The notes under the pieces were generated by a model, which saw only the letters and a list, made by a program, of their open reading frames with translations, was not told where the DNA came from and did no database searches. A program made the position numbers and the translations under genes. Shown here one piece after another: positions 142-25,693 of a stretch of DNA of 40,933 nucleotides. The stretch spans positions 1 through 40,933 of the forward strand of contig JACPZY010000092.1 in assembly GCA_016195215.1 (NCBI GenBank), given 5' to 3'. This DNA comes from Actinomycetota bacterium (GTDB lineage Bacteria; Actinomycetota; Actinomycetes; Nanopelagicales; Nanopelagicaceae). The stretch's first letter is position 1. Every line of letters starts with the position of its first letter.

Positions 142-1395
142 CTGATCCTTGACACTTCTAGGGTTATTTATACTTCATTGCGCCTTCAATATCGAGGCGT
201 TCTTCTTTCGAATCACCTCCCCGGGTCGCTCTCGCAGGGCCGTTTTGAGAAGTTCTGTTCCATCCCAGATCTGCAGGATTTCTTTGGAGATTTGAACATC
301 GACGTTGCGTCCAGCCCGATGTCGTCCGACAGATATTTGTTGCCAGGCAACACCCACAACGCCATTGGCCCCCACACGCCGACTCACCCAATCAGGACCA
401 CTGCGCACCTCACTGAGCGCTTTGGTATCCACTTCTGGCCCGACAAGGCTGATGCCAGGATGGGTGAACCTGGTCATCGGTGTCACCATCCCGATTCCTT
501 GATGGGGTCTTACGGTGTTGTATTCGACGACCCACGCATCGAGTTCCTTCTGAGCCGCTGCTTGGCTTTCAAAGGTGCGAGATTGCAAGAACTCCGTGCG
601 AAGGCTGCGATGAAAACGCTCTATCTTTCCTGTCGTGGTGGGAGAGCGAGGAGCGGTTAATAAGTGATCGATGCCGTTCTCACGGCAGATGCGGTCAAAG
701 AGCACTTCAGTATCTTTATAGCCGAAGCGGCCGGTGAAAACCTTGCCGTTGTCGGTCAAGATCTCCTGGGGAACGCCGTGAATGCGCATGGCGTTGGCAA
801 AGTGATCGCAGACCGAACGAGAAGTTGCACGGACCATCAACCCAGCCATAACGCAGAGCCGGGAGTGATCATCAACACCGGTCAAGCATTTGAGCTCTTT
901 GCCATCGGTGAGAAGAATTCCTCCCACCTTTCTAACCCAGCGGTGCCATAACTCCATGGGCCCGCCTCGCTCCCATCTCTTGAACTTCCTATCGCGCTCC
1001 CTTCTGGCGTGAGGTTCAATGAGGTTGGCCCTCTTGAGGCAGCGATAGATACCTGACAACGAAGGCACGGGTTCAATACCTAAACGAGCCAACTCGTGTT
1101 GAAGGCGTTTGGGTCCCCAGAAGATATTGCGCCGCCGCAGTTCCACGATCTTCACATCGACTTCGGCGCTCATCTGATGCTCACACCCATCGGGTCGGTG
1201 AGATTGATTCATCAACCCAGGCATTCCAGATACTTCATAGCGCAACAACCAGGAATGAACGCTCTGGCGCGAGACGCCGAACCGGCGCGCAACATCCACG
1301 ATGGGGACTCCATCTCGGATTACAGCTAGTACTGCTTGATATCTCTGCTCCATAACACTTAGCTCCATTAACATGAATGAAGTGTCAAGGATCAG
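142..1395 (-). mobile_element. IS481-family insertion sequence (minimal extent set by terminal inverted repeats)
   Basis: ctgatccttgacact (142-156) is the exact reverse complement of agtgtcaaggatcag (1381-1395). The two repeats bracket a single DDE transposase ORF. No clear target-site duplication is seen. The functional right end may extend through the iteron array to about 1470. Confidence 0.7.
175..1374 (-). CDS. IS481-family DDE transposase (HTH plus integrase-core fold)
   Basis: 399-aa ORF with an N-terminal HTH (VARRFGVSRQSVHSWLLRY). It carries the GVDDHSR, ILTDNGKVF and TTGKIERFHRSL motifs and the long C-terminal extension typical of actinobacterial IS481 transposases. The real start may be the internal Met at 1353 (MEQRYQAV...). 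Confidence 0.9.
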   Translation of the reverse strand: MLMELSVMEQRYQAVLAVIRDGVPIVDVARRFGVSRQSVHSWLLRYEVSGMPGLMNQSHRPDGCEHQMSAEVDVKIVELRRRNIFWGPKRLQHELARLGIEPVPSLSGIYRCLKRANLIEPHARRERDRKFKRWERGGPMELWHRWVRKVGGILLTDGKELKCLTGVDDHSRLCVMAGLMVRATSRSVCDHFANAMRIHGVPQEILTDNGKVFTGRFGYKDTEVLFDRICRENGIDHLLTAPRSPTTTGKIERFHRSLRTEFLQSRTFESQAAAQKELDAWVVEYNTVRPHQGIGMVTPMTRFTHPGISLVGPEVDTKALSEVRSGPDWVSRRVGANGVVGVAWQQISVGRHRAGRNVDVQISKEILQIWDGTELLKTALRERPGEVIRKKNASILKAQ

Positions 1396-1470: not shown

Positions 1471-1486
1471 GTAATACAATCGTTTG

Positions 1487-1558
1487 AGCCGCCTCCGGGA
1501 TTTGAACCCGGGACCTACGCATTACGAGTGCGTTGCTCTACCCCTGAGCTAAGGCGGC
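1487..1558 (-). tRNA. tRNA-Thr (anticodon CGT)
   Basis: The minus strand reads GCCGCCT-TA-GCTC-AGGGGTA-GAGC-A-ACGCA-CTCGTAA-TGCGT-AGGTC-CCGGG-TTCAAAT-CCCGG-AGGCGGC-T. This folds into a full 72-nt cloverleaf with a 7-bp acceptor stem and a TTCAAAT T-loop. No CCA is encoded. Confidence 0.9.
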
Positions 1559-1587: not shown

Positions 1588-2514
1588 TTAGGAAATACCC
1601 AAACCAGCCATATTTTCCAACATAAATTCAATATCAATTTGACATGCATCACTTGGATTCATAAATTTATTTAGGACGTTGTCCCACCATTTTACGGTGC
1701 TTACTAACGACTCCTCTTGCACTTCAATTGAAGTTCCGGCGACCAGGGCCTCTAGTGCCAAGATGTACCCCCGAAGCGGATCTAGTACGTGTTGCCATGG
1801 TCGAGTACTTTGAGGATTGCGAACCGTAGTAGCGAATCCATTTGCGTATCCGCGAATGAGATCAGGAAGTAGTCGATTCTCTGCCCAATCTCCTCCTCCA
1901 AGAACATTTCCCGCACGAAGCGAAATCACCTTTGGCCCACCCGAAACTTTAGCGATCTGTCGCCATGCAGCAGATGTAGCTTCTGTACCAACTTTGCTGG
2001 CGCTATAAGGATCTTTACCTTCTAAAGCATCGGTCTCAACAAATGCACGACCCGAATTATCATTCCGGTAGACCTTGTCAGTAGTGATGACTCCGATTGC
2101 TTCGACTGAACCGACTTCAAAAGAAGCGCTGAGGACGTTTACTGACCCCATGACATTAACTTCAAAAGTCTCCCTGGGAGTCTTGTACGACTCAAAGACC
2201 AATGGTTGCGCAGCCATGTGTATCACCACTGAGGGAGCAGTGCTCTCGACAAACTTCAATACAGATTCAAAATCGCGAATATCAGTAAAAGATTCCTGTA
2301 TCACACCGAAACGGTTGGTCCGTTCAAAGAGCGAATTTGGTAGAGCAGGCAGTGACAAACCTACAACCGGAACATCTAGTTTCTCTAAGAGGAGAGTGAG
2401 CCAGGTTCCCTTAAAGCCTGTGTGTCCGGTTACAAGGACAGGACCTGGCAAATCTCGAAGTTTCTTGCCCAGTGAATGATGCATAGGGCAATAATAGTCG
2501 AACCTCATAGCCAC
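1588..2514 (-). CDS. rfbG: CDP-glucose 4,6-dehydratase (short variant)
   Basis: Motifs VLVTGHTGFKGTWL, TTDKVY, DPYSASK (YxxxK), RAGNVLGGGDWAENRLLPD and RPWQHVLDPLRGY match the RfbG/DdhB pattern. The likely start is Met at 2484 (MHHSLGKK...). The product is about 60 aa shorter than the canonical enzymes I remember. Confidence 0.8.
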   Translation of the reverse strand: MAMRFDYYCPMHHSLGKKLRDLPGPVLVTGHTGFKGTWLTLLLEKLDVPVVGLSLPALPNSLFERTNRFGVIQESFTDIRDFESVLKFVESTAPSVVIHMAAQPLVFESYKTPRETFEVNVMGSVNVLSASFEVGSVEAIGVITTDKVYRNDNSGRAFVETDALEGKDPYSASKVGTEATSAAWRQIAKVSGGPKVISLRAGNVLGGGDWAENRLLPDLIRGYANGFATTVRNPQSTRPWQHVLDPLRGYILALEALVAGTSIEVQEESLVSTVKWWDNVLNKFMNPSDACQIDIEFMLENMAGLGIS

Positions 2515-2534
2515 TGGAGTAGTGAGCGAAGAAG

Positions 2535-4235
2535 TCAGAGATCCTTAATGGAATCACCCATAGCCATTTTGGGTAACGCCTTCGCTTCTCGAGAGACTAC
2601 GAATTCCAGTAGAAGCGGACTCGAATTCCAGCCTCCAACTCTTTCCTCAAGCTCCTTCAAGTCACGGGAATTTTCAAATCGTAAGGCAGGAATTCCAAAA
2701 GCTTCTGCCACTTTACAGAAATCGGGAGTGCTATACCCATCCCGGGTAGAGATATAACGCCCATCGAGATTGCCCTCTTGAAACTGAGCGACCATTCCCA
2801 ATTGATTATTGTTTATTACACATATGGTGATCGGTAACTGCAATTGCATAACCGTTTGAAGTTCGGCGATACTCAATTGGGTACAGCCGTCGCCGGTGAT
2901 GACAACCCATCGACCAGGCTGACTAATTGAAGCACCAATGGCAGCAGGCAATGCAAAGCCCATTGCCCCAAGCCCGCCAGAGGTTACAAATCGTTGATGA
3001 GCACCTAGTTCCAGGGATTGAGCCGCCCACATCTGGTGTTGGCCGACATCAACGATGTAGCCATTTGATTCTGCGAAGACGTTTGAAAGCCATCGGATGA
3101 TATCGTCTGGGTTGAATTCAACATTCGAACCTTGTTCCGCGGCTTGTGGTCGTTGAACTTTTTCTTCTTTGAATTTAGCAAGGTGGGATTTCGAATCAAA
3201 TTCGATCTCTGAATTAACTAGAGCCTTGAGAAACGCTTTCAAATCAGTCCCGACACACACATCGGCTTTTATGCGCCCGCTGAGTTCTTCCATATCCACA
3301 TCCACTCGGAAAATCTTCTTTCCCTGCAGGAAAGCGTGTAGATCAGTTCCTGTTTGTCGAACATCAAGTCGAGTTCCGAGAGCGATAATCAAATCAGAAG
3401 TGGCGAGCGCTCTATTAGCCCAGCGGTTACCGTAACTGCCGATCATGCCCACTCGGTAAGGGGAATCGCTTGGAAGAAGGTCCACGCCCATGAGCGAAAA
3501 GACCACGGGTAGTTTGAGCGCCCCTACCACTTTCCTAAAATATTCGACGGATCCAGACGCGCGAATGCCTCCACCCGCGAGGATGATTGGTGAAATACTC
3601 TGACTGATTAATTTCTCTAGTGCTCCAATCTCCTTAGTAAAACCTTCCCGATCTTCATTCTTATCGTGCGTGTTCAGCACAACAACTGAGGATACAGGCT
3701 CCTGTTGAACATCTATTGGAATATCTAGAAGCACTGGCCCAGGCCTGCCTTGATGCGCAATGTTCCAAGCCGCGTTCAATTCGGAAAGCAAATCCGTTGA
3801 GGAATTAATACTGACCGCCCTCTTTGTAATTCCTCTGGCTGTTGAGACAATATCGAGTTCTTGGAATCCGTTCTGCCGCTGCAACTCCGAGCGTTTGGCT
3901 TCATTCTGATTTACCTGACCTGTAATGAAAACGGTTGGAATCGAGTCAAAATATGAGGATGCGATGGCAGTTATTAGATTCGTGGCACCAGGACCGCTTG
4001 TTGCCATCGCCACCGAGGATCGGCCGCTAATTCTCGTACCGCCTTCCGCGGCGAATCCCGCCGCTTGCTCATGACGAAGACTAATAATTGGCGTCTTGCC
4101 CAATCGAGAGACTGCATCGGTTAAGAAAGCAATCATTCCGCCAGAAAGCTGAAAGACGGCGGAAACTTTCTTTTCGGCAAGAAACTGAGCCACTAAATCG
4201 GATTTGGTAAAAGTGGAGGGCTCCGAAGTCACCAA
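2535..4235 (-). CDS. ThDP-dependent acetolactate-synthase-like carboligase (YerE-like candidate)
   Basis: 566 aa. The N-terminal Pyr domain has the catalytic Glu (RHEQAAGFAAEG) and SGPGATNL. The C-terminal ThDP/Mg motif is GDGCTQ...(X24)...NNNQLGMV. It lies in an operon with rfbG. The start may be GTG at 4232 rather than TTG at 4235. Confidence 0.8.
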   Translation of the reverse strand: MVTSEPSTFTKSDLVAQFLAEKKVSAVFQLSGGMIAFLTDAVSRLGKTPIISLRHEQAAGFAAEGGTRISGRSSVAMATSGPGATNLITAIASSYFDSIPTVFITGQVNQNEAKRSELQRQNGFQELDIVSTARGITKRAVSINSSTDLLSELNAAWNIAHQGRPGPVLLDIPIDVQQEPVSSVVVLNTHDKNEDREGFTKEIGALEKLISQSISPIILAGGGIRASGSVEYFRKVVGALKLPVVFSLMGVDLLPSDSPYRVGMIGSYGNRWANRALATSDLIIALGTRLDVRQTGTDLHAFLQGKKIFRVDVDMEELSGRIKADVCVGTDLKAFLKALVNSEIEFDSKSHLAKFKEEKVQRPQAAEQGSNVEFNPDDIIRWLSNVFAESNGYIVDVGQHQMWAAQSLELGAHQRFVTSGGLGAMGFALPAAIGASISQPGRWVVITGDGCTQLSIAELQTVMQLQLPITICVINNNQLGMVAQFQEGNLDGRYISTRDGYSTPDFCKVAEAFGIPALRFENSRDLKELEERVGGWNSSPLLLEFVVSREAKALPKMAMGDSIKDL

Positions 4236-4408
4236 CCAACCTTAGCAATTTCGGTCTCGATTGATTGCTACTTCAGAACCCCTTCCAATATCTGCTTTTC
4301 TCCAATTTGATTCGACTGCACAAGGGATAAATCTGCATAAGACAGTAGGATTCGGTGAGTAAATGAAGGATATTTGGCTGCAATCGACGGCCAGGAATGA
4401 GGAATTAG

Positions 4409-5719
4409 GTGTCTCCAGGAACAAGTGACAAGATTGCGGATCTAGTCACAGCAGCCATGAAAGAGCGCCACCCAAGCAAACCCTTTGTGCCCGGAGAGAC
4501 AACAATTCCCGTATCGGGAAAGGTCTTTGGCGAGGCCGAGCTCACAGCGGCCGTGCAGGCAAGTCTCGATTTCTGGCTAACTGCAGGACCCTACACAGAG
4601 AAGTTTGAAAGCCAACTCGCAAGAACTGTCGGCATGCGCCACTCTTTCATGGTCAACTCAGGCTCTTCGGCGAATCTGATCGCTCTCACAGCACTAACCA
4701 GTCCTTCTCTTGGAAAGAGAGCACTCGAGCCAGGTGATGAGGTGTTAACGGTGGCAGCAGGATTTCCGACTACAGTCACACCGATTCTCCAGAATGGATT
4801 GATACCAGTCTACGTAGACGTTGATCTAGAAACTTACGTTGCCAATGATGCCGCTCTCGAAAGTGCAATCGGTCCGAAAACGCGAGCAATCATGATGGCC
4901 CACACGTTAGGCAATCCCGTCAATCTTGACTTGGTTAAGGAACTTGCAAAGAAGCACCATCTCTGGTTTGTCGAGGATAGTTGTGACGCACTCGGGGGCA
5001 CATACCGGGGACAGAATCTTGGAAGTTTTGGAGACCTCTCCACATTTAGTTTTTACCCCGCACATCACATCACTACAGGCGAGGGCGGAGCTGTTTTGAT
5101 TAAGAAGGTTGCTCACAAGAGGGCGGTGGAATCAATCAGGGATTGGGGACGCGATTGTTGGTGTGCTCCCGGATGCGAGAACACGTGCCTAAAGAGGTAC
5201 GAGTGGCAACTCGGCGAACTACCGATGGGGTATGACCACAAATATATTTATTCGCATCTAGGTTACAACTTGAAATCCGGAGATATCCAGGCTGCAATTG
5301 GTCTGGCGCAACTTGACCGCCTAGCGAGTTTTGTCGAGCTCCGACGAAAGAATTGGGCATACCTGAGGGAAGGTTTAGCCGATCTCGAGGATTTTCTCCT
5401 GCTTCCAAAATCTACCTTGCACGGAGACCCCTCCTGGTTTGGTTTTGCTATAACAGTTAAGAAGCAGAGCCCCAAAACTCGGAACGAAATAGTAAAGGCT
5501 CTAGACGAGAGAAAAATTGGAACCCGATTACTATTTGGGGGAAATCTCCTACGCCAACCAGCCTTCATTGGTACACCACGACGAGTCCACGGTGAGCTCC
5601 CAAATACGGACATTGTCATGAATGACACCTTTTGGATGGGGGTCTGGCCCGGGTTGACCACCCCCATGTTGGATTACATGATTGAATCTATTCACGAAAT
5701 TCTTGGAGGAGCCAAATGA
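4409..5719 (+). CDS. rfbH: CDP-6-deoxy-L-threo-D-glycero-4-hexulose 3-dehydrase (E1, PMP/[2Fe-2S] enzyme)
   Basis: DegT/DnrJ/EryC1 aminotransferase fold. The motif FYPAHHITTGEGG carries His where aminotransferases have the PLP Lys. Cys spacing is C-X57-C-X1-C-X7-C by my count (DSC...DCWCAPGCENTC). GTG start at 4409. Confidence 0.9.
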   Translation: MSPGTSDKIADLVTAAMKERHPSKPFVPGETTIPVSGKVFGEAELTAAVQASLDFWLTAGPYTEKFESQLARTVGMRHSFMVNSGSSANLIALTALTSPSLGKRALEPGDEVLTVAAGFPTTVTPILQNGLIPVYVDVDLETYVANDAALESAIGPKTRAIMMAHTLGNPVNLDLVKELAKKHHLWFVEDSCDALGGTYRGQNLGSFGDLSTFSFYPAHHITTGEGGAVLIKKVAHKRAVESIRDWGRDCWCAPGCENTCLKRYEWQLGELPMGYDHKYIYSHLGYNLKSGDIQAAIGLAQLDRLASFVELRRKNWAYLREGLADLEDFLLLPKSTLHGDPSWFGFAITVKKQSPKTRNEIVKALDERKIGTRLLFGGNLLRQPAFIGTPRRVHGELPNTDIVMNDTFWMGVWPGLTTPMLDYMIESIHEILGGAK

Positions 5720-6510
5720 AGGTGATCATCCTTGCCGGGGGCTTAGGAACACGCCTTTCGGAGGAGACCGAAAGTAAGCCAAAACCGATGGTTTTGATTG
5801 ACGATAAGCCAATTCTCTGGCATTTGATGAATACATTTTCGCAGCAGCGCTTTGATGAGTTTGTCCTAGCTTTGGGATATCGAGGTGATGTTATTAAGCG
5901 CTGGCTCCTTGATCTGAATGAACTTGAAGGGGACATCATAATTGATACCTTGAATAAGAAAGTTCATCACCTAAAGAAAGGGAATAACTATTCTTGGAAA
6001 GTAACCGCTCTTGAAACTGGTCTAAATACACAGACAGGTGGACGAATCGCTCAATGCATGAAGGCATTCCCTGGTGAGCGTGTTATTGCAACCTACGGTG
6101 ATGGTCTTGCAAACATCTCGATCAAGAATCTCCTTGAATTCCATGAATCGCACGGAAAATTGGCAACCGTGACGGCGGTAAGACCACCTGCGCGATTCGG
6201 ACATTTACACATAGAAGGTTCGCAAGTCACGCATTTCGGAGAGAAGAACCAATCCGATGAAGGGTGGATCAACGGCGGCTTTTTTGTGCTCGAGCCAGAG
6301 GTTGCACAATTTGTTGCAGACGACAACGAGCCGTTCGAAAAGGGAGCCTTACAAAGACTTGTCGAAAAAGGTCAACTTATGGCCTATCACCATCATGACT
6401 TTTGGCAGCCAATGGATACGCTCCGCGAGAGGAACGATTTGGCGGCTATGGCAAAGGAGACCCCACCGCCTTGGTTACGTCCCGCCAACCCCGTTCAAAA
6501 AGGTCGGTAG
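5716..6510 (+). CDS. rfbF: Glucose-1-phosphate cytidylyltransferase
   Basis: The N-terminus MKVIILAGGLGTRLSEETESKPKPMV...KPILWHLM matches the RfbF/DdhA signature. It has a 4-nt ATGA overlap with rfbH. Confidence 0.9.
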   Translation: MKVIILAGGLGTRLSEETESKPKPMVLIDDKPILWHLMNTFSQQRFDEFVLALGYRGDVIKRWLLDLNELEGDIIIDTLNKKVHHLKKGNNYSWKVTALETGLNTQTGGRIAQCMKAFPGERVIATYGDGLANISIKNLLEFHESHGKLATVTAVRPPARFGHLHIEGSQVTHFGEKNQSDEGWINGGFFVLEPEVAQFVADDNEPFEKGALQRLVEKGQLMAYHHHDFWQPMDTLRERNDLAAMAKETPPPWLRPANPVQKGR

Positions 6511-7155
6511 ATGGCTACCAAGAGAATTTTGGTTTTTGGTGCTTCCGGAACTCTTGGATCAGCTTGCGTGAAAGAATTACGTGAGAATCAGCTGGAAGTG
6601 ATTTCCGTTGGTCGAGACCTCCGTGTGCTGGATGAAATTTAATTGATTGATGGAGCCGTCTGGGCGCAGGGAGCAAACTTCACTGGAGGCATCTCAGAGA
6701 CAAGCACTCAGCAGTGGGACGAGATATGGGATGCAAACTTCAAATATATTGTGCGCTCACTTGAAATTCTCTTGGGAAAGAAATTGTTTAGCCACGGCGC
6801 ACGTTTGGTCGTGGTTAGCTCGGTCTGGCAAGAAATCACGCGAGCGCAGAAAGTCGCCTATATCGCCTCAAAAGCAGCGGTTGGCGGGTTGGTCAGAGGT
6901 TTAGCGGCTGATTTGGGCAGAGAAGGAATCTCGATAAATGCAGTTCTGCCTGGCGTCGTCGATTCACCAATGACACGTCAGCATTTAAATAGCGGACAAA
7001 TTGAGCGGGTCGTCCAGGGAACACCGAAGGGTCAACTCGTCACTCCTGAGGAGATTGCGAAGACAGTTGCTTTCCTGGTTGGACCCGATTCCGCAGGTAT
7101 CAACGGACAATCCATCATTGTTGATGGCGGATGGTCGATCACCCGCAATGTTTGA
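6511..7155 (+). pseudogene. Short-chain dehydrogenase/reductase interrupted by an in-frame TAA (6640-6642)
   Basis: ATG at 6511 directly follows the rfbF stop. It reads MATKRILVFGASGTLGSACVKELRENQLEVISVGRDLRVLDEI, then TAA, then continues in the same frame as LIDGAVWAQGANFTGG...YIASKAAV...DGGWS. The Rossmann GxxGxxG lies upstream of the stop and the catalytic YxxxK lies downstream. Confidence 0.8.
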
Positions 7156-8215
7156 ACTAACAATCCAGAGTTCAACACGCTCCTATCCGATAATTATCGG
7201 ATCAGGCGTGATTGAGGGTTTAAAGGATCGCGATTTTGTGATCCTTGCCGACATTAATCTTTCCAAGATCGCTCAAAGTTTGGGAACTAGAGTGATTGAG
7301 CTTCCTGCGGGTGAGGAGAAGAAGACATTAGCCACCTGCGAGATGGTGCTATCACAATTGAAATCACTGGGGGCAAATCGCGACACTGTCCTTCTCGCGA
7401 TCGGTGGCGGTTACATCCAGGATATTGCCACGCTCGTAGCCTCTCTTTACATGCGGGGAATTACGTGGAGTTACGCACCCACAACCCTGATGGCGATGAT
7501 GGATTCCTGTATTGGTGGCAAGAGTTCGATCAATGTCGGTTCGGCCAAAAACCTTGTTGGTAACTTCTACCCGCCGATGGAAATAATTATTGATCCCACT
7601 TTTATTGCTTCGCTGGATGATTCTGCAATCGCTTCAGGTCTATCTGAAGGTGTCAAGATTTGCTATGCGAAGGGTCCAGCGTCATTTGAAAAATTCTGCA
7701 CTTATCGAGCCACTGTCGAGGACTTTGGTTCGACACTTGCTGCCGAATGGATTGCTCATGTACTCAATGCCAAGAAATGGTTTGTAGAGACGGACGAGTT
7801 CGACCAGGGTTCACGGAAACTCCTCAACTTCGGACATACCTTCGGACATGCCCTTGAATCGGCCACGAATTTTGCTATCCCTCATGGAATTGCGATCAAC
7901 ATCGGTGTGCTGGCGGCTTTACAACATCCTCTTTCTCACCAGGGTTCGCCAGAACAGAGACTCAGAGAAGAGTGCCTCGCCATTCTTACTCCGGTTCTTA
8001 AGCGTCTTAAAACGGACCTTGGCTCCTTCGATGTGAAGAAGTTCGAAGAGGCTTTTCTTGGTGACAAGAAGCACTCTTCGCAGGATTTCCGACTCATCCT
8101 CTCCCAACAGGGCACTTTGAGAGTGGTCGAAGTAGAACGGAACGATCAGGAGATTGCAGTGGTGGTTGAGGCGATGCGGAAGGCTCTGGAGATGGCGCGG
8201 GCGGGGAAGAAATGA
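7148..8215 (+). CDS. 3-dehydroquinate-synthase-like (sugar-phosphate-cyclase superfamily) enzyme
   Basis: Motifs: GGGYIQDIATLVAS, PTTLMAMMDSCIGGKSSIN, KNLVGNFYPP, ETDEFDQGSRKLLNFGHTFGHALE and IPHGIAINIG. The start was set to ATG at 7148 (MFELTIQ...), overlapping the SDR stop by 8 nt. The ORF-track start at 7001 is an upstream extension. Confidence 0.8.
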   Translation: MFELTIQSSTRSYPIIIGSGVIEGLKDRDFVILADINLSKIAQSLGTRVIELPAGEEKKTLATCEMVLSQLKSLGANRDTVLLAIGGGYIQDIATLVASLYMRGITWSYAPTTLMAMMDSCIGGKSSINVGSAKNLVGNFYPPMEIIIDPTFIASLDDSAIASGLSEGVKICYAKGPASFEKFCTYRATVEDFGSTLAAEWIAHVLNAKKWFVETDEFDQGSRKLLNFGHTFGHALESATNFAIPHGIAINIGVLAALQHPLSHQGSPEQRLREECLAILTPVLKRLKTDLGSFDVKKFEEAFLGDKKHSSQDFRLILSQQGTLRVVEVERNDQEIAVVVEAMRKALEMARAGKK

Positions 8216-9984
8216 AGGAGAGTTACGCCGACCAGTTCTGCGACTGGTTGATCGATCAGGGGTATAGCCACTGCTTTTTCGTCGCAGGTGGCAACATCAT
8301 GCACCTTCTTAATTCGGCTAGAACCCGTTTTACCTGCATCCCTGTGGTACATGAGGTGGCAGCGGGAATCGCTGTCGAGTACTTCAACGAGACCTCCCCT
8401 GATTCCAGAGCATTTGCACTTGTGACGGCAGGCCCAGGTGTCACGAATATTGTCACGGCCATTGCCGGGGCGTGGTTGGAGAGCCGCGAACTTCTGGTGG
8501 TCGCTGGACAGGTGAAGAGCTCAGATTTAGCATCACCAGATTTGCGCCAGCGTGGAATACAAGAGGTGGATGGTGTTGCTCTTGTTCAATCGATTACAAA
8601 AAGAACTCTTCAGATTGAGCGACCACTGCCAGAATCAACGATTCTAGAAATCTGCAAGACGAGTAAGGAAGGTCGCCCTGGTCCTGTCTTCATTGAGTTC
8701 TGTCTCGATGCTCAAGGTGCTCCTTCAGAGATCTCACTCAATGACGGCGCGAAAGTGTCGAGCGCCATTCGATTGAAGCCCACATCCGATGAAGTCGGAA
8801 AGTTGAATGCGGCATTGTCGAACTGTGAGAGACCTATCTTGCTAATCGGTGGCGGGTTGGCTCGGGCAGAGATGGCGACACTGCTTCCCGATCTTGAGTC
8901 ACTCGGTCTGCCCATCATGACGACGTGGAACGCGCTGGATCGTATTGACGCGTCCCATCCGCTCTATTGGGGTCGGCCAAATACGTGGGGCCAACGCAGG
9001 GCAAATGTCCTTATACAACAGTCCGATCTGATCATCGCCGTGGGCACACGACTGGGGCTCCAGCAGACTGGATTTAATTGGCAGGGCTTTGCTCCACTGG
9101 CAACAATTGTTCAGGTGGATATTGATCCGTCAGAACTGAGAAAAGGACACCCGAGAGTGGACTTGGCGATCTGTGCAGATGCGAGCGAGGTTTTAGGTGG
9201 AATCAATATTGAAGATGATAGTTCTCGTTGGAGTGAATGGAAGACTTTCGGGAGGAAAGTCAGAGAACTACTTCCGAATAATGAGCGCGCAAACTCGCAT
9301 AAATCCGGATACCTCAATCCTTACGACTTTGTAGAAGAACTTTCCCAGGTGCTAGATGGGGATGATCTCCTCATCCCGTGCAGTAGCGGCGGGGCATTCA
9401 CGACCATCATGCAGGCTTTTGAGCAGAAATATGGACAGAAGGTGGTGACGGATAAAGGGCTTGCAAGTATGGGTTATGGATTATCTGGCTCGATAGGTGC
9501 TTCCTATGCGAATCCCGGGAAGAGAGTGATACTCATCGAAGGTGATGGTGGATTTGCACAGCATATTCAGGAGATCGGAACTGTCGTCGCGGGCCATCTG
9601 CCGATAAAGATCTTCATCTACGAGAACGAGGGATATGCGTCCATTCGGATGACTCAAACCAATTATTTTGGGGGCGAGTATGTCGGTTGTGATCGATCAA
9701 CGGGGTTAGGGCTTCCCAACTGGGAGAGTCTTTTTACATCCTACGGAATCAGAACACTCTCGCTGGATCCCTCCGATCCATTCTCCGATTCAGTACTTCA
9801 ATCCTTGAAGAGTGATGAGCCAATTGCATTTATTGTTCCCATTGATCCAGAGCAGAGTTATTTTCCAAAGATCACGAGTCGCGTCCTGGAAAATGGCAGT
9901 ATGGAATCGAACCCGCTACATCTCATGAGCCCCGAACTTCCAGCGGATGTGACCAAAGAGGTATTTAGGTACCTAAATGCATAG
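8212..9984 (+). CDS. Second ThDP-dependent acetolactate-synthase-like enzyme
   Basis: 590 aa with HEVAAGIAVEY (catalytic Glu), TAGPGVTNIV and the C-terminal motif IEGDGGFAQH...IYENEGYASIRM. It has a 4-nt ATGA overlap with the upstream gene. Confidence 0.8.
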   Translation: MKESYADQFCDWLIDQGYSHCFFVAGGNIMHLLNSARTRFTCIPVVHEVAAGIAVEYFNETSPDSRAFALVTAGPGVTNIVTAIAGAWLESRELLVVAGQVKSSDLASPDLRQRGIQEVDGVALVQSITKRTLQIERPLPESTILEICKTSKEGRPGPVFIEFCLDAQGAPSEISLNDGAKVSSAIRLKPTSDEVGKLNAALSNCERPILLIGGGLARAEMATLLPDLESLGLPIMTTWNALDRIDASHPLYWGRPNTWGQRRANVLIQQSDLIIAVGTRLGLQQTGFNWQGFAPLATIVQVDIDPSELRKGHPRVDLAICADASEVLGGINIEDDSSRWSEWKTFGRKVRELLPNNERANSHKSGYLNPYDFVEELSQVLDGDDLLIPCSSGGAFTTIMQAFEQKYGQKVVTDKGLASMGYGLSGSIGASYANPGKRVILIEGDGGFAQHIQEIGTVVAGHLPIKIFIYENEGYASIRMTQTNYFGGEYVGCDRSTGLGLPNWESLFTSYGIRTLSLDPSDPFSDSVLQSLKSDEPIAFIVPIDPEQSYFPKITSRVLENGSMESNPLHLMSPELPADVTKEVFRYLNA

Positions 9985-10032
9985 AGGTATAGTTCCTTGA
10001 TGCCCACCTATTGAGGCCGAGTTGGAGTGTTG

Positions 10033-10833
10033 ATGAACCGCACAGAGCGCAAAATGGTAGAGATCCTTGAAAAGGGAAAAGAGTCGCATGGGGTCGTCAG
10101 CGTCAAGGCAGAATTTGAAGCCGAGGGCACGCGGCCCGATGAGCTTCTCCGCTTAGTCGATGTTGCGCGCTCGGCCGGACTCCCCCTCACCCTGAAAATC
10201 GGCGGGTGCGAAGCGATACGCGATCTCCTAGAAGCCAAGCAGATAGGGGTGAAGTACATCGTCGCTCCGATGATCGAAACTCCATACGCCTTGAGCAAGT
10301 ACATCCACGCCCGCGACACGGTCTACTCACCCGACGAACAAGAGGGCATGCACTTCCTCTTTAACATGGAGACGATTACCGCCTATCACCACCGCGTGGA
10401 GATGGCGGAGATGGCAAAGGGCGCGCTCTCTGGTTTTGTATTTGGTCGCGTTGACTTCTCGGGCTCGATGGGGCTGGGACGCGAGGCAATAGAGACCGAT
10501 GAAGTGACGGATAAAGTGATTGAGGTATCCAAGCTCTGCGCGAGTACCGGGCTTGAACTAGTGATGGGTGGCGCAATTTCCATCGATGCCCTTGCAAACC
10601 TCAAACGAGTTCACGCGACTGGGCTCACCCGTTTTGAGACACGTAAGGTCGTCTTTGCAGGAGCATCGGCGGTCTCAGAAGGTATTGAAGATGGACTTCT
10701 CAACGCGGTCCACTTTGAACTGCTCTGGCTACTGAATAAGCGCGACTACTACAGCAACATCACGGAAGAGGATCACCATCGAATCGACATGCTGGAATCG
10801 CGCTGGCAGGTTCTAGGAAAGAGCGTTCTCTAA
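10033..10833 (+). CDS. HpcH/HpaI-aldolase / citrate-lyase-like protein (PEP/pyruvate-binding TIM-barrel superfamily)
   Basis: [11 protein letters not shown] and [14 protein letters not shown] resemble the MIE.P and G.ND motifs of this superfamily. ATG at 10033 lies 5 nt after GGAG; the ORF-track start is GTG at 10027. The family assignment rests on motifs only. Confidence 0.55.
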
Positions 10834-10837
10834 ACCA

Positions 10838-11788
10838 ATGGCACTTGCCAAGATCTCCACGTTATTGCGGAAGGAATCCATCCCCCTTAAGCGGGTCCTG
10901 ATCACTGGGGCCTCGGGTTGGATAGGGCGAGAGACGATTGCGCTACTACAAGAAGTACTCGGCGATCAATTTGCGCATCGTGTGACTCTGGCCGGCTCGC
11001 GGGACTCCACGGTTACGATTGAGGGAGTCACGCACCATGTGCGGAAACTCTTTGACATCAACTCAGCGGAACACTTTGACACCGTCATCCACCTGGCTTT
11101 TCTTACGCAGGAGAAGGCCCACATCATGGGCGCCGAAGAATTTTCCCGCCTCAATCGGCAGATCTCAGAGCACGTATATCAGCTCTGTCAGCAATCAAAT
11201 GTCAGGCATCTTCTAGTCGGATCGAGTGGTGCCGCCGATCCGAAAATCCTAAAAGCCTTCCAAGATCCCGCGAAGCGAATCTACGGCGATTTGAAGCGCG
11301 AGTCCGAAGAATTGTTCGCGGAGTTACGCAATCACGATCATATCAAGGTGGAAATCTGTCGAATATGGTCGATCTCGGGAAGCAATTTTCTCACTCCCTC
11401 CAAATATGCCCTCGGCAATTTTATTGAGCAGGCAAAATCAACCGGTAATATCCATCTGGCAAACCCAGCATCGGTCAGGCGTGCATACATAGATGCTGGC
11501 GAAATGATCGGTGTTCTCCTGCTGGACCTTCTCAAAGGGAACGGGAAACTCATCAGCTCGGGGGGCTTTGAAACCTCGCTACAGGAGCTGGCCAGACTTG
11601 TACTTGACGAGTTCAATCCAAGCGGGCGAGTCATCCTCCCAATGCAGACAAATGAGCACCAGGATGATATTTACAGTCCCGATGTAGAACCATTTAATCG
11701 GCTTGCGAAAAATTTTGGGGTGAAATTAAGTAATCTGGAGGAACAGATAAGAATTACCGCCACTTCCAGTATCTTCGCTGCCAAGTGA
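10838..11788 (+). CDS. NAD-dependent epimerase/dehydratase-family (extended SDR) protein
   Basis: VLITGASGWIGRE Rossmann motif, a YGDLK catalytic Tyr/Lys pair, 316 aa. It is the last gene of the plus-strand sugar operon. Confidence 0.7.
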   Translation: MALAKISTLLRKESIPLKRVLITGASGWIGRETIALLQEVLGDQFAHRVTLAGSRDSTVTIEGVTHHVRKLFDINSAEHFDTVIHLAFLTQEKAHIMGAEEFSRLNRQISEHVYQLCQQSNVRHLLVGSSGAADPKILKAFQDPAKRIYGDLKRESEELFAELRNHDHIKVEICRIWSISGSNFLTPSKYALGNFIEQAKSTGNIHLANPASVRRAYIDAGEMIGVLLLDLLKGNGKLISSGGFETSLQELARLVLDEFNPSGRVILPMQTNEHQDDIYSPDVEPFNRLAKNFGVKLSNLEEQIRITATSSIFAAK

Positions 11789-11798
11789 GAGGTTTTAT

Positions 11799-12734
11799 TT
11801 AAAAGCCGATTTTCTCACTTACTACAAAATTTGGACGCCCCTTAACTTCCTCATAAACCAGACCGAGGTACTCACTCACAATTCCGAGCATTAATGCCTG
11901 CATACCTAGACCAAAAAGTATGAGCGCGATAATCGAGCCAAAGCCAGCAAATGGCACTCCGACAAAGAACCAGAGGATCGCTAGCAATACCATCGCCAAG
12001 AGCGAGAGGCTCGAAAGGACCAGACCAAAAGCCGAAATAAAACGGAGCGGCTTATAAGAGTGTGCAAATATTCCCTTGAGTGCTAATTCGACAACTTTCA
12101 TTGAACTGGCGTTGGATACACCCGCAAATCTTGGTGGGCGATTCATCGGCACTCCCACTGAATTAAATCCAACCCAGGCAAAAAGTCCACGGACAAAGCG
12201 ATTTCGCTCAGTCATCCCCCGAACTGTCTCATAAACCTTCCGATCGACAAGGCGGAAATCGGAGGCATTCGCTGGGATCCCCCCATCAGAGAGACTGCCC
12301 GCTATCTTGTAGAAGAGTCGAGAATTGAAACGGCGGAGGAAGCTGCTGCCCTGACGCTCTTGAACTAAACCATAAATATTCTCATACCCTTCTTCCCACT
12401 TTCGCAGGAATGCCGGGATCAACTCTGGTGGATCCTGGAGGTCGGCCGTCATCAGCACGCAAGCGTCACTATCGACAAACTCGAGACCAGCCGTAATCCC
12501 GCCGTCCATACGGAAGTTCCTGGAAAGTTTCAGGATTTTAAACTGAGAGTTCTTCTCTGAAATTGCCTTCAACTTCTCCCACGTATGGTCGGTAGAACCA
12601 TTCTCGACGATGAGCGCCGACCACTCATACGCTGCTTCGCTATCGAATACGGCTTTTAAACGGGAAGTGAGTTCATCCACACACGCTTCCTCATTGTAAG
12701 CAGGAATGACGATCGCGACTGATTTCATTATCAA
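11799..12734 (-). CDS. GT2 polyprenyl-phosphate glycosyltransferase (GtrB/ArnC/Dpm1-like)
   Basis: VAIVIPAYNEE, VENGSTDHT and TADLQDPPELIP motifs, plus two C-terminal hydrophobic helices. This is the architecture of lipid-carrier-charging GT2 enzymes. Confidence 0.8.
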   Translation of the reverse strand: MIMKSVAIVIPAYNEEACVDELTSRLKAVFDSEAAYEWSALIVENGSTDHTWEKLKAISEKNSQFKILKLSRNFRMDGGITAGLEFVDSDACVLMTADLQDPPELIPAFLRKWEEGYENIYGLVQERQGSSFLRRFNSRLFYKIAGSLSDGGIPANASDFRLVDRKVYETVRGMTERNRFVRGLFAWVGFNSVGVPMNRPPRFAGVSNASSMKVVELALKGIFAHSYKPLRFISAFGLVLSSLSLLAMVLLAILWFFVGVPFAGFGSIIALILFGLGMQALMLGIVSEYLGLVYEEVKGRPNFVVSEKIGF

Positions 12735-12783: not shown

Positions 12784-14088
12784 TCAACTACTTGCTACGA
12801 CTCTCAAATTCTCTTTTCTTCTTACCCGTCCGATAACACTCTTTACCGTGCAGATAAGTGCTAAGAGCAACCAGATGAGACTCGAGATTGTCCTCATTGC
12901 ATTCTCGCGTCCGCTTGAAACGGGAATCACGATCGGCAGAAGAGTGGTCAAAATGGCAATTGTTGCGACCGAATACACAGAATCGAAAGTGGCGCTGCCA
13001 CCTTTTGCCAAAGCTTTTTTGGAAGTTCCCAGGGAGAGCGCAATTGGGACTATAAGGAAGGCAGTTGCGTAATGCAGGCTCAGCGGGGCTACCAACCATA
13101 ATGTGGAGACGAGCAACAAGATTGCAATCTCATCTGGGAGGACTCTGGCTACTACTACGAAGAGGATGAGTATGAAGTAGAAAATCCCAATCCACCAAGC
13201 ATGTGACAGTAAAAACTGATACTCAGCATTTAAAGAGGGAAATCTCGAAAGTGTATGAGTGAAGGCGCTATAGAGAGAGACATTGCTGGGGTTTATTTCC
13301 GTAGGCATCGTGCCTCGATATCCAAGAATCCCACGAGCAATTGCATTGATTTTTTCAACGTAACCTCCCTGAAAGAGAGTTGCCACTATGAATGAGGCGC
13401 CCAGACTTAAGAGGATTGCCTCTGTCGCGGCCATGAACTTTCTCCGCGGAATGTATGCAAGTACAAGGAGAATCGGGTACACCTTGAAGGCAATAAGTAA
13501 GGCCAGCAGGATTGAAGACTTACCCCACTTTTCCTCTTTTAGCGCCCGAAAGAAAAGGTAGAGGGGTGTCACGAGGAGCCCCACAGAATTTCCTCTATCG
13601 AGGGCTGCAATAAAGCCGACAGAGAGAGCAATGGGAACGAGAAGAGTTCCGTACTTGCCAAAAAGATTCTTCCGCTTCAATTCTGCATATACGGGGTAGA
13701 GCATCGAGCCCATAGAGAGGAGGAGAAAGAGAATAAGTCCAGGTTTGTATGGCAAGAAAGAGAAGACCCAAAATAGGCCCATGGCTACAGGTGGGTAGTT
13801 ATTCGATACTGAGATGGTATTTATCCACGGATTACCGGCCCTGGCATAATCATGAGTCAGTAGGTAGTCCCCAAAAGTGTGCACGCCAAAATATCTGTCG
13901 CCAACTACAACATTAACAACATACCGTGGAGGCTCATTCGAGTAGTAAGAAATAAGCGCATGGATATCGTAATTGTAATATCCGCCTAGAACCCAAGCCA
14001 GGATCGCCGAGAGAACCAACCCCGACATTAGAAGTGGCAGTATCCCAATTCTGACCCGCCCACCAACTCGAATCCCAAAATTGTTCAT
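12784..14088 (-). CDS. Polytopic GT-C glycosyltransferase, DUF2029/GT87-like
   Basis: 434 aa with many hydrophobic segments. The first extracytoplasmic loop, FGDYLLTHDYARAGNPW...NNYPPVA, resembles polyprenyl-phosphate-sugar-dependent GT87 enzymes. Confidence 0.65.
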   Translation of the reverse strand: MNNFGIRVGGRVRIGILPLLMSGLVLSAILAWVLGGYYNYDIHALISYYSNEPPRYVVNVVVGDRYFGVHTFGDYLLTHDYARAGNPWINTISVSNNYPPVAMGLFWVFSFLPYKPGLILFLLLSMGSMLYPVYAELKRKNLFGKYGTLLVPIALSVGFIAALDRGNSVGLLVTPLYLFFRALKEEKWGKSSILLALLIAFKVYPILLVLAYIPRRKFMAATEAILLSLGASFIVATLFQGGYVEKINAIARGILGYRGTMPTEINPSNVSLYSAFTHTLSRFPSLNAEYQFLLSHAWWIGIFYFILILFVVVARVLPDEIAILLLVSTLWLVAPLSLHYATAFLIVPIALSLGTSKKALAKGGSATFDSVYSVATIAILTTLLPIVIPVSSGRENAMRTISSLIWLLLALICTVKSVIGRVRRKENLRVVASS

Positions 14089-17545: not shown

Positions 17546-19621
17546 TTACTTCTCTCTCGGTTTACGTTTGAGTCCTTGCGGAATTCGACTGGTTCGCTCT
17601 TTCTTTGGAATCTTGCTCAATGCTGGCAGTTCTGCAACCCGCGTAATAATCGTATGTTGAATATCCGCCAGGCTCATCTGTGCATCGACGACTAAATAAC
17701 GTTCGGGGTCCAGGACGGCCAACTGGAGAAACTCTTGGCGAATTCTCTCGTGGAAGGCGAGGGGCTCTGCCTCAAGTCGATCCTTTTTCTTGAGCCGAGA
17801 TAGGCCGACTTCAGCTGGAAGATCAAGTACCACTGTAAGAGTTGGGAAGAGGGACTCGGTTGCCCAACGCGAAATTCGAGCAACTTCACCAGGTTCAAGA
17901 ACTCGACCGGCACCTTGATAGGCAATGGAAGAATCAAAGTACCGATCCGTGATGACGATTTCGCCCGCTTCCAGAGCTGGACGGATTACAGAATGAACGT
18001 GGTGGGCACGGTCGGCTGCATAAAGTAAAGCCTCGGCCCGCGGGGAAATATCACCGGTTGAATGGGAGAGCAAGATTTCTCTAAGACCCTTGCCAAGATC
18101 GGTGCCGCCGGGCTCGCGAGTTTGAAGAACTTCATGTCCTTCACTCTCGAGCCATTTCTTTAACAACTTCACTTGCGTGGATTTACCAGATCCCTCTCCG
18201 CCTTCAAATGCAATGAAAAGACCCTTGGTCGATGCGCCGGTAATGGATCCAAGTTCCCCCTTGATCGCATTTGAAATATCGCTCCAAATAGAAATATTGG
18301 GGCGATCCTTCATCTGCTGGTAGGAGACCACGCCAATAAGTGAAGCAACCACGCCTGCAATTAGTATTGTTATGGCCGCCCCGTTGTAACTCACGTTGGT
18401 ATTTTGAATACTTACACTGTGCCGTCCCACCGCCGCCGCGATAAGTGGCGATATCGCAAGAACGGCCACGAGTGTCACTCGGATGAGCGATTGCATAAAG
18501 GCAAAGGTACGGCCGCGCACATCGTCGGCAACTTCCATTCCTAGCATTGTGAAACCAGTTACCCAGCAGACGCCGGAAAAAGAGCCGAGAACTATGACGA
18601 TTAAGACGGCCAGAACTAAGTTGGGGATAAGCGCGAGAAGAACAAGGAATAATCCTGCGATGGTCAGCGAGGCGCCGAAGAGCCGGCGCCGAGAGAACTG
18701 CGCAAATACCTTAGGTCCAAAGGCAATACCTATAGCCAGACCGGTGAAAACTGACCCGAATAGAACACCGTATGCGGCATCGCCACCACCGAGGTCTCCG
18801 ACAAAGGTTCGGGCAAGACCGATAACTGCGCCGGCGGCGACAAATGCGCCGACCATTCCGACAATAAGACCGCGCACAATTTTAGATTTACTGACGAACC
18901 GCCAACCTTCAAGGAGCGACTTGGCAACTCCAACTTCGCTCGCGTTCTTCGATGCAGCTCCCTTTGGTATTTCATGCAGACCCCAGGCGGTCCATGCCCC
19001 GAAGGCGAAACTCGCTGCATTGATATAAAGCGCCGAATCGACTGAGTCGATTGTAAAGAAAGGTAGCGCACTTGCGAGCGCGCCATTTACAAGTGCTAAG
19101 AAGGAGAAGAGAACGGCGGCGATCGGCGCGCTGCCGTAGGCGGCTAATAATGAGACTTGATTGGCACTCTCCAATTTCTCCTTAGGCACTAAATTCGGAA
19201 CACTCGCCTCTTTTGCCGGCGACCAGAAGAGGGTGACACACTCAACCAGAATGGTGGCGATGTAGAGCCAGAGGTAATTACCGATGATAGGTATTGAAAT
19301 GTAAAAACCGGCACGGATAATATCCGTGACAATCATCAACCGACGGCGATCGAAGCGATCGGCGATTACTCCAGCAAGTGGTCCGAGGAAGACAGATGGG
19401 ACCAGGCGGGCGATGAAAACACCCGCGATCGCAAAGTTAGCCTTTGCGTAGTTGCCTCCTGAAAGTTGCTGGGCCATGGCCGTTGTCGCCAGAAGACCGA
19501 GCCAGTCCCCCAGGGAGGAGAAAGCCATCGATCGCCAGAGTTTGCGGAAGGCAGGGATGGCCATGACACCGCGCGTCTGATCCGGCGCGGGCGGGGTGGG
19601 GGTCGGAAACGAGCGTGCCAC
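17546..19621 (-). CDS. tmk: MFS-type membrane domain fused to dTMP (thymidylate) kinase
   Basis: The N-terminal portion of about 440 aa is polytopic and MFS-like. The C-terminal part carries FIAFEGGEGSGKSTQ, REPGGT and DRYFDSSIAYQGAGR, which are Tmk motifs. Confidence 0.85.
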   Translation of the reverse strand: MARSFPTPTPPAPDQTRGVMAIPAFRKLWRSMAFSSLGDWLGLLATTAMAQQLSGGNYAKANFAIAGVFIARLVPSVFLGPLAGVIADRFDRRRLMIVTDIIRAGFYISIPIIGNYLWLYIATILVECVTLFWSPAKEASVPNLVPKEKLESANQVSLLAAYGSAPIAAVLFSFLALVNGALASALPFFTIDSVDSALYINAASFAFGAWTAWGLHEIPKGAASKNASEVGVAKSLLEGWRFVSKSKIVRGLIVGMVGAFVAAGAVIGLARTFVGDLGGGDAAYGVLFGSVFTGLAIGIAFGPKVFAQFSRRRLFGASLTIAGLFLVLLALIPNLVLAVLIVIVLGSFSGVCWVTGFTMLGMEVADDVRGRTFAFMQSLIRVTLVAVLAISPLIAAAVGRHSVSIQNTNVSYNGAAITILIAGVVASLIGVVSYQQMKDRPNISIWSDISNAIKGELGSITGASTKGLFIAFEGGEGSGKSTQVKLLKKWLESEGHEVLQTREPGGTDLGKGLREILLSHSTGDISPRAEALLYAADRAHHVHSVIRPALEAGEIVITDRYFDSSIAYQGAGRVLEPGEVARISRWATESLFPTLTVVLDLPAEVGLSRLKKKDRLEAEPLAFHERIRQEFLQLAVLDPERYLVVDAQMSLADIQHTIITRVAELPALSKIPKKERTSRIPQGLKRKPREK

Positions 19622-25544: not shown

Positions 25545-25552
25545 TTAACTTC

Positions 25553-25584
25553 GGTAATCCCACCAATCGTTAATACGCCCCCCT
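25553..25584 (+). repeat. Copy 1 of a 32-bp direct repeat (ggtaatcccaccaatcgttaatacgcccccct)
   Basis: It matches 26229-26260 at 28 of 32 positions, including an exact 17-mer ccaccaatcgttaatac (25560-25576 versus 26236-26252). Confidence 0.8.
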
Positions 25585-25693
25585 TTCGATCAGTGTGTTG
25601 GTGTCCTGGACCATCTGCTTTAGAACTCGAGGCCAAGTACCCAGCGTCTAACTTCTGATGAAGCGAATAGGCAGGAAAGTCTTACAACAACGA

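Follow-up and report, generated by a model that had tools for sequence, protein, structure and literature searches.

A probable long-acyl-branched dideoxyhexose cassette in a surface-glycan island of a freshwater actinobacterium

C-branched 3,6-dideoxyhexoses are rare, strongly antigenic surface sugars. Yersiniose A of Yersinia pseudotuberculosis, made with Eod, E1/E3, YerE and YerF, carries a two-carbon branch. Longer branches are found in erwiniose, caryophyllose and gastriose, for which Steitz et al. (2022) gave a unifying scheme: an aldolase makes a functionalised 4-hydroxy-2-keto acid, a YerE-like enzyme that depends on thiamine diphosphate (ThDP) adds this keto acid to cytidine diphosphate (CDP)-4-keto-3,6-dideoxyglucose, and a reductase reduces the resulting side-chain ketone (PMC9306805). 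In the lipooligosaccharide cluster of Mycobacterium marinum, the genes in question are MMAR_2331 (aldolase), MMAR_2332 (ThDP carboligase) and MMAR_2333 (glycosyltransferase) (PMC9306805). Acyl-branched dideoxyhexose clusters are therefore already described in Mycobacterium and Gram-negative bacteria; here we analyse a further member, in contig JACPZY010000092.1 of an actinobacterium (40,933 nt, the window from here on).

A first-pass annotation of positions 1588–11788 had predicted a CDP-activated, C-branched 3,6-dideoxyhexose for the cell surface, with a yersiniose-type two-carbon branch added by the ThDP enzyme at 2535–4235 as its core. The sugar class stands, and the two-carbon core is not the best fit: the conserved core consists of a second ThDP enzyme, an aldolase, a 3-dehydroquinate synthase (DHQS)-like enzyme and a short-chain dehydrogenase/reductase (SDR), which agrees with the scheme for longer branches; the closest relatives lack the ThDP enzyme at 2535–4235, which has no YerF-type partner here; and the dehydratase and SDR genes are damaged in this genome. 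We consider it probable that the core is instead a long-acyl-branched, caryophyllose-type cassette. The earlier inventory missed the DHQS-like gene, the second ThDP enzyme and the aldolase, all of which lie inside the interval, and its view that such sugars belong mainly to Gram-negative bacteria and antibiotic pathways overlooked the caryophyllose and gastriose of Mycobacterium (PMC9306805, PMC5706390). Three features of the locus stand out: two carboligase clades in one island, a conserved DHQS-like and SDR module, and two damaged genes.

A conserved cassette around a pyruvate aldolase homologue

The gene map, built from six-frame open reading frames (ORFs) with Pfam and NCBIfam scans, is as follows.

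1588–2514 (likely true start 2484), minus strand: CDP-glucose 4,6-dehydratase homologue, rfbG′ (TIGR02622, 284.8 bits)
2535–4235, minus strand: ThDP-1, YerE-like carboligase of the short-branch (PpYerE) clade, intact, three TPP domains
4409–5719, plus strand: E1 (RfbH), CDP-6-deoxy-L-threo-D-glycero-4-hexulose 3-dehydrase (NF011936, 684 bits, cut-off 423)
5716–6510, plus strand: glucose-1-phosphate cytidylyltransferase, RfbF (TIGR02623, 295.8 bits, E 2.5e-88, full length)
6511–7155, plus strand: short classical SDR of 214 codons, a pseudogene here (in-frame TAA at 6640–6642)
7148–8215, plus strand: DHQS-like NAD/metal sugar-phosphate phospholyase (PF01761, PF24621)
8212–9984, plus strand: ThDP-2, YerE-like carboligase of the aldolase-linked long-donor clade (JanthE/mycobacterial type), three TPP domains
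10027–10833, plus strand: class II (HpcH/HpaI-like) pyruvate aldolase homologue, ALD (weak PF03328 match)
10838–11788, plus strand: extended SDR, EPI (PF01370; GxxGxxG and YxxxK motifs)
11799–12734, minus strand: family 2 glycosyltransferase (GT2), polyprenyl-phosphate type, PgfS/ArnC/GtrB-like (PF00535)
12784–14088, minus strand: GT87-family GT-C membrane glycosyltransferase (PF09594)

No gene of the cassette is more conserved than the aldolase, whose homologues are 65–92% identical. Its AlphaFold model (pLDDT 91.5) has HpaI, HpcH and YfaU as best folds in the Protein Data Bank (PDB), at template modelling scores of about 0.55–0.58. A gap of 43 nt separates ThDP-2 from the aldolase gene, after which comes the extended SDR. 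On the long Nanopelagicaceae contigs of the closest relatives, the cassette consists of rfbG (361 aa, intact), a block rfbH–rfbF–(SDR)–DHQS–ThDP–ALD–EPI and a GT2–GT87 pair. Identity to these relatives is 73–93% over the cassette, with 86–87% for RfbF, 79–80% for ThDP-2, whose orthologues sit in the same cassette, and 73–74% for the extended SDR; apart from the two damaged genes, nine others are full length by the same comparison.

A genome scan with the aldolase alignment found relatives in at least 539 species genomes, spread over Actinomycetota (including Mycobacterium ahvazicum, M. bohemicum and M. terramassiliense), Cyanobium, Prochlorococcus, Acidobacteriaceae, Alpha- and Betaproteobacteria and Eremiobacterota. 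The cassette also has cultured carriers, such as Ca. Planktophila dulcis, with an aldolase that is 76% identical. We mapped the window proteins on the best 80 aldolase-anchored loci, 43 of which have full flanks; M. marinum, R. palustris and P. atrosepticum are not among these 80. A ThDP-2-type enzyme accompanies the aldolase in 37 of the 43 full-flank loci and another ThDP type in four more, so that the two functions are linked in 41. The other partners recur less often: rfbH in 33, rfbF in 32, rfbG and the DHQS-like gene in 31 each, the SDR in 30 (always with the DHQS-like gene) and the extended SDR in 26.

The three Mycobacterium species suggest a link between this cassette and a studied pathway. 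Each carries GT2–ThDP–ALD, with the aldolase 63–66% and the ThDP enzyme 54–56% identical to those of the window; SDR–DHQS comes next in M. ahvazicum and M. bohemicum and is absent in M. terramassiliense (locus L037). GT2–ThDP–ALD is the order reported for MMAR_2333-2332-2331, genes that are genetically tied to caryophyllose (PMC9306805, PMC5706390). A search for literature linking the DHQS-like gene, or its pair with the SDR, to caryophyllose or YerE found none.

The DHQS-like protein has true DHQS enzymes as its best PDB matches and, in 49 family members, the DHQS catalytic, metal, phosphate and carboxylate motifs are at least 90% conserved. It scores 281.2 bits against TIGR04425 (cut-off 400) and 242.2 against the aroB model TIGR01357 (cut-off 305).

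The genes for the keto-sugar precursor were largely read correctly in the first-pass annotation. E1 carries His in place of the pyridoxal-phosphate-binding Lys (FYPAHHITTGEGG, residues 215–227) and a [2Fe-2S] Cys motif that a script counted as C192-X57-C250-X1-C252-X7-C260, exactly as described there. The cytidylyltransferase assignment holds as well: RfbF matches TIGR02623 over its full length, about 4 bits under the curated cut-off of 300.25. The dehydratase at 1588–2514 was right as to homology and wrong as to intactness, and of the SDR candidates the extended enzyme stands, whereas the classical SDR really spans 6511–7155 and is interrupted. The extended SDR is a candidate for side-chain ketoreductase, in a YerF-like role, or for epimerase.

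Two carboligase clades

Both ThDP enzymes contain PF02776, PF00205 and PF02775. Translations and alignments place the catalytic Glu and the cofactor motif of ThDP-1 in HEQ and GDG...NNN; the motifs of ThDP-2 are HEV and GDG (EGDGGF). Neither reaches the equivalog cut-off of TIGR00118 for acetohydroxyacid synthase (AHAS), 538.35 bits, ThDP-1 scoring 439.7 and ThDP-2 247.7, and no ilvN/ilvH-like small-subunit gene is adjacent to either.

The best PDB match of ThDP-1 is 5AHK at 352 bits, compared with about 270 for true AHAS. We take 5AHK to be PpYerE; a literature search on the entry found nothing relevant. Its Val491, minus a 12-residue tag offset, matches V479 of the variants described in PMC12247030. 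ThDP-2 has 8RPH as its best match (304 bits, residues 6–583), which is JanthE from Janthinobacterium sp. HH01 (PMC12188165).

A neighbour-joining tree (48 sequences, 574 columns, 100 bootstraps) separates the two enzymes. ThDP-1 and its metagenomic homologues cluster with 5AHK (99% bootstrap); ThDP-2 clusters with all the aldolase-linked enzymes (100%) and next with JanthE (100%); and the two groups jointly exclude E. coli IlvB/IlvI (99%). The first-pass annotation had described the protein at 2535–4235 as an acetolactate synthase-like ThDP enzyme co-transcribed with the dehydratase, and had named a phylogeny as the check. Its three TPP domains and its position directly upstream of the dehydratase gene on the same strand agree with that description, and the tree places it with PpYerE and away from the amino-acid-biosynthetic enzymes, in keeping with its score below the AHAS cut-off. 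By these comparisons ThDP-1 is classed as YerE-like and not as an amino-acid-biosynthetic acetolactate synthase, and ThDP-2 is the predicted conserved branching enzyme of the cassette. Both are predicted to be YerE-like carboligases, with a 2-keto acid as source of the acyl anion and the 4-keto group of a CDP-sugar as its acceptor.

Seven aldolase-anchored loci (L014, L022, L034, L040, L051, L055 and L065) have a ThDP enzyme only 31–36% identical to ThDP-2. The tree includes five of these, which make up a third clade (97% bootstrap), placed between JanthE and the main clade of aldolase-linked enzymes.

Proposed pathway and competing explanations

From family knowledge, RfbF, RfbG, E1 and an E3-type reductase encoded elsewhere would make CDP-4-keto-3,6-dideoxyglucose. 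Following the published scheme and the gene linkage, the class II aldolase would then join pyruvate to an aldose or aldose phosphate, ThDP-2 would decarboxylate the resulting 2-keto acid and place the acyl anion on C-4 of the CDP-keto sugar, and the extended SDR would reduce the new side-chain ketone.

For the remaining two genes we offer a tentative proposal of our own: the DHQS-like enzyme and the short SDR could be the missing steps to the C7 donor of caryophyllose-type sugars, a polyhydroxylated omega-deoxy 2-keto acid. The DHQS-like enzyme may act as a non-cyclising (or intercepted) phospholyase on a product of pyruvate and tetrose phosphate that resembles 3-deoxy-D-arabino-heptulosonate 7-phosphate, removing its terminal phosphate through oxidation, elimination and reduction of the DHQS type. 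Reduction of the resulting ketone by the short SDR would then give a 3,7-dideoxy-heptulosonate-type 2-keto acid; decarboxylative ligation and reduction would leave a 1,3,4,5-tetrahydroxyhexyl branch, as in caryophyllose. In an alternative order, the DHQS-like enzyme would act on the tetrose phosphate ahead of the aldolase.

By family membership, GT2 would load the sugar onto polyprenyl phosphate and the GT87 enzyme would pass it to an envelope glycan. GT2 scores 230 bits against the PgfS model NF047588 (cut-off 500) and 136 bits, also under the cut-off, against the ArnC model PRK10714; its copies are 58–66% identical in many cassettes, those of Mycobacterium included. The relation of GT2 to polyprenyl-phosphate enzymes and the adjoining GT87 gene suggest lipid-linked, extracytoplasmic transfer to an envelope glycan, and GT87 is the probable extracytoplasmic transferase to an envelope polymer. 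GT87 keeps its position in the relatives yet is only 49–50% identical to its counterparts in the related loci L001 and L003, compared with 84–85% for the adjacent GT2, a divergence that fits an acceptor-specific enzyme. No homologue of a GtrA-type flippase was found in the window, though locus L093 has one at the same site.

Several points weigh against a caryophyllose-type pathway as drawn here. We infer the donor keto acid, which of the aldolase and DHQS-like steps comes first and what the extended SDR does, and the DHQS-like enzyme, with all DHQS catalytic motifs kept, might close its substrate into a ring and release no linear keto acid. L001/L002 have lost the short SDR and kept the rest of the cassette, so this lineage may do without it, which weakens its proposed role. 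The tree is a neighbour-joining one with two true AHAS and Gcl as its only outgroups, and it left out YpYerE, ErwE, MMAR_2332 and MyGE, so that orthology to characterised enzymes is indirect; the presumed identity of 5AHK with PpYerE has its support in the V479 numbering fit. To our knowledge, biochemical data on this clade within Actinomycetota come from Mycobacterium only. Finally, the window contains neither E3 nor a flippase, and with rfbG′ and the SDR damaged this genome may have no working pathway.

The last point leads to the best surviving alternative, which overlaps with our own: the locus is decaying, and this strain makes no branched sugar from an island remnant that is being lost or switched off. 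We regard this as a serious but somewhat doubtful possibility. It draws support from the state of rfbG′, the sole rfbG homologue in the window. The protein covers only model positions 7–247 of the 352 of TIGR02622, and its alignment to PDB 1WVG/1RKX ends at residue 257. It has lost in frame about 51–64 residues (the NFGP...W block) that are present in 8 of 8 comparators and that correspond to residues 255–318 of the rfbG of L085, while keeping its extreme C-terminus; at the DNA level, the gap is bordered by a short TCAATTG repeat (microhomology). As the loss falls in the C-terminal substrate-binding part, rfbG′ is probably inactive, judging from these alignments. In the short SDR, the TAA stands where relatives have Gly, and the ORF that follows (6643–7155) lacks the Rossmann N-terminus and matches positions 72–236 only of the Pfam profile adh_short_C2. 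Decay would also fit the insertion sequence (IS) of IS481 type and the inverted-repeat-like sequences at the island edge, the size of the island (about 12.5 kb, smaller than in relatives) and the lack of an E3 (AscD-type) reductase: domain scans found no Fer2/FNR-type protein among the window ORFs, and neither a motif scan nor tblastn with the candidate from L057 found a match in the window.

Against decay stand the nine further genes that are full length compared with relatives. The deletion in rfbG′ is in frame, such that a shortened protein is still made, and a second dehydratase could be encoded outside the window. The SDR is intact in L003, L006 and L007, and only a remnant is left in L001 and L002, whose cassette is otherwise intact; it was therefore lost independently in a close relative and may be dispensable. 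A missing E3 is also the rule: a crude scan (one regular expression plus FNR motifs, indicative only) found a candidate in 1 of 91 related loci and none in the other 90, so this reductase is usually encoded elsewhere. Even if the locus is a functional caryophyllose-type cassette, the in-frame deletion in rfbG′ and the stop in the SDR mean that its output is probably reduced, altered or abolished unless other genes compensate.

Two other accounts of the rfbG′ deletion were considered. A recombinant with a native 3′ end and an imported 5′ part was rejected, because sliding identity is 50–76% to 4 of 4 comparators throughout the gene; an 82% blastn match at 1345–1698 is owed to the tRNA and spacer and not to rfbG′. 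An assembly misjoin was judged unlikely, as the deletion keeps the reading frame and assembler k-mers are longer than the repeat (about 7–11 nt). The SDR remnant of L001/L002 (8851–8937, between rfbF and the DHQS-like gene) reads …GKDGISINAVLPGVVD fused to GGWSIARNV and a stop.

A second alternative keeps the yersiniose-type sugar: ThDP-1 would add a two-carbon branch from pyruvate, one SDR would serve as YerF and the rest would be accessory. This we think unlikely. In its favour are the clustering of ThDP-1 with PpYerE, which is also its best structural match, and the genomic company of its homologues. These homologues (the best 74% identical, the others 53–67%) adjoin rfbF/rfbH/rfbG in 5 of 5 contexts; in L085/L086, L087 and L092 they form simple clusters with an extended SDR and usually a GT2, with no aldolase or DHQS-like gene, and the metagenomic contig L088 repeats the window's order of rfbH beside ThDP-1–rfbG. 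Yet ThDP-1 is missing from the otherwise identical cassettes of the closest relatives and is the better match in none of the 80 aldolase-anchored loci. The reductases that accompany its homologues in L085 and L087 have no counterpart in the window, its only co-transcribed partner, rfbG′, is damaged, and a yersiniose pathway leaves seven conserved genes of the interval unexplained. rfbG′ is only 54–63% identical to any comparator, compared with 73–93% to L001/L003 for the other genes, and ThDP-1–rfbG′ therefore behaves as a separate unit beside the conserved cassette. As a second, yersiniose/PpYerE-type unit, it could put a short branch on the same keto sugar.

According to a third alternative, which we find very improbable, the DHQS-like enzyme, aldolase and ThDP-2 lead to something other than a sugar nucleotide, for instance a carbocycle of cyclitol type, and have no connection with the CDP-sugar genes or one that was only added afterwards. 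The DHQS-like protein does retain every cyclase-type catalytic motif, and its best family model, TIGR04425, is named for a cyclizing phospholyase. However, the donor in ThDP chemistry is a 2-keto acid; a carbocycle such as dehydroquinate is not one, so it would not serve as donor. Further, the DHQS-like gene is near-constantly found beside rfbF/G/H and a YerE-like enzyme across phyla, and the mycobacterial counterparts MMAR_2331 and MMAR_2332 are genetically tied to caryophyllose (PMC5706390, PMC9306805).

Last, we dismiss as extremely improbable that both ThDP enzymes are ordinary AHAS or sulfoacetaldehyde acetyltransferases placed beside sugar genes by chance: the best NCBIfam models carry the name acetolactate synthase large subunit, as do homologues in their JGI annotations, but both fall well under the TIGR00118 cut-off, have no regulatory small subunit nearby, share with PpYerE and JanthE a 99%-supported clade that excludes E. 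coli IlvB/IlvI, and are consistently linked to rfbF/G/H.

A hypervariable island and its closest known systems

The island with the probable caryophyllose-type cassette sits between conserved borders, with a tRNA gene on one side and a backbone of glyoxalase, hydrolase, holB, tmk and topA on the other. Two features mark the left edge.

142–1395, minus strand: IS481-type insertion sequence (transposase 175–1374; rve_3, HTH_32 and rve matches), with 17-nt perfect inverted repeats at 142–158 and 1379–1395
1486–1558, minus strand: tRNA-Thr (CGT), immediately downstream of the dehydratase gene (ARAGORN; Rfam 72.4 bits)

The tRNA, the sole match in an Rfam search of the window, is a neighbour common to relatives (blastn 82% to L001 over 1345–1698 and 86% to L087 over 1486–1635). 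Beyond GT87, Pfam and NCBIfam scans of the ORFs identify a glyoxalase-like gene, a hydrolase, holB, a tmk–MFS fusion and topA as actinobacterial backbone. The G+C content is slightly lower inside the island (0.48–0.52) than outside (0.52–0.55). The flanking genes are common to L087 and L093, whose cassettes differ, which makes the site a hypervariable island where related genomes keep different cassettes for branched sugars. The locus itself is likely to be one version of such a surface-glycan island; its host, a freshwater actinobacterium, has its closest relatives among the Nanopelagicaceae. A third cassette variant occupies the same site in L093 (8001–11473), with a ThDP-1-type carboligase, a split transketolase (N and C parts), an epimerase, GT2, rfbF and rfbH; it has two ThDP-dependent systems, and a GtrA-like gene adjoins.

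Some further observations concern the surroundings. Between the IS and the tRNA, at 1383–1470, lie four 18-nt units at 22–25-nt spacing (consensus TGTCAAGCATCAACCGGA) that resemble the right inverted repeat of the IS481-type element, GAAGTGTCAAGGATCAG; these could be footprints of repeated insertions or transposase-binding sites. At 1–100, on the minus strand, a reading frame beginning MNHQEVAMRRFAPEEIQEVWERLRDGQSVR continues past the window start and resembles the N-terminal helix-turn-helix of a further transposase or regulator, a hint of a second mobile element beside the IS. The thymidylate kinase at 17546–19621 (minus strand) is fused to an N-terminal major facilitator superfamily (MFS) transporter domain in a 691-aa protein, and a 696-aa fusion lies at the syntenic position of L093 (1900–3990). 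An Abi_2 (abortive-infection-like) protein is encoded at 26382–27179 (minus strand), in a stretch poor in long ORFs (25544–27320) that may be a small defence islet.

Hypervariable surface-glycan islands are usually thought to shape phage and grazer recognition, and YerE-like carboligases are sought as biocatalysts that make chiral tertiary alcohols. Judged by its aldolase family, which occurs in at least 539 species genomes, the aldolase-linked cassette is widespread, and in freshwater Actinobacteria, an abundant group, it lies in such an island. Two carboligases that differ in donor class, present in one island, could diversify a single CDP-keto sugar. The DHQS-like and SDR pair is a testable source of the long branch donor; if the proposed role is true, it would account for the methyl end of the 1,3,4,5-tetrahydroxyhexyl branch and for its hydroxyl pattern, and would hold for the module in hundreds of species, as far apart as Mycobacterium and Prochlorococcus. 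With two of its pathway genes damaged, this genome is itself a less valuable example.

Among known systems, the predicted transfer step resembles three-component glycosylation (GtrA/GtrB/GtrC, ArnC/ArnT and PgfS with GT-C enzymes) in that a GtrB/ArnC/PgfS-like GT2 adjoins a GT-C transferase; it differs in having no GtrA-type flippase in the window, in a donor that would be a CDP-sugar and in an actinobacterial GT87 as the GT-C enzyme. In fold families, and in all the motifs for catalysis and for binding of metal, phosphate and carboxylate, the DHQS-like enzyme agrees with AroB and the sugar-phosphate cyclase superfamily. It departs from them in missing the aroB (242 versus 305) and TIGR04425 (281 versus 400) cut-offs, in its family-specific substitutions (YMRG..W, DSC, GGKSS and PP for QP) and in lying in a sugar-nucleotide cassette instead of a shikimate context.

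Of the solved structures, JanthE is closest to ThDP-2; it groups with the aldolase-linked clade (100%) and takes long, functionalised 2-keto acids and ketone acceptors (PMC12188165). Unlike ThDP-2, with its canonical GDG, it has an unusual CDG ThDP motif, visible in the alignment, and it branches outside the aldolase-linked clade. With yersiniose A of Y. pseudotuberculosis, the locus shares the CDP-keto-sugar precursor genes and, in ThDP-1, a member of the clade of the YerE homologue PpYerE, whose relatives occur in simple YerE/YerF-like clusters; in contrast to that system, the window has no E3 and no YerF-type partner, and ThDP-1 stands outside the conserved cassette.

The caryophyllose genes of M. 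marinum differ in their acceptor, a trehalose lipooligosaccharide, whereas here the sugar probably goes to a wall polymer via GT87; the window also has a second, PpYerE-type carboligase and a damaged dehydratase and SDR. What the two have in common is the aldolase, the YerE-like ThDP enzyme, a reductase and the genes for CDP-4-keto-3,6-dideoxyglucose, together with an actinobacterial envelope glycan as setting, and three other Mycobacterium species carry homologues that are 54–66% identical to those of the window.

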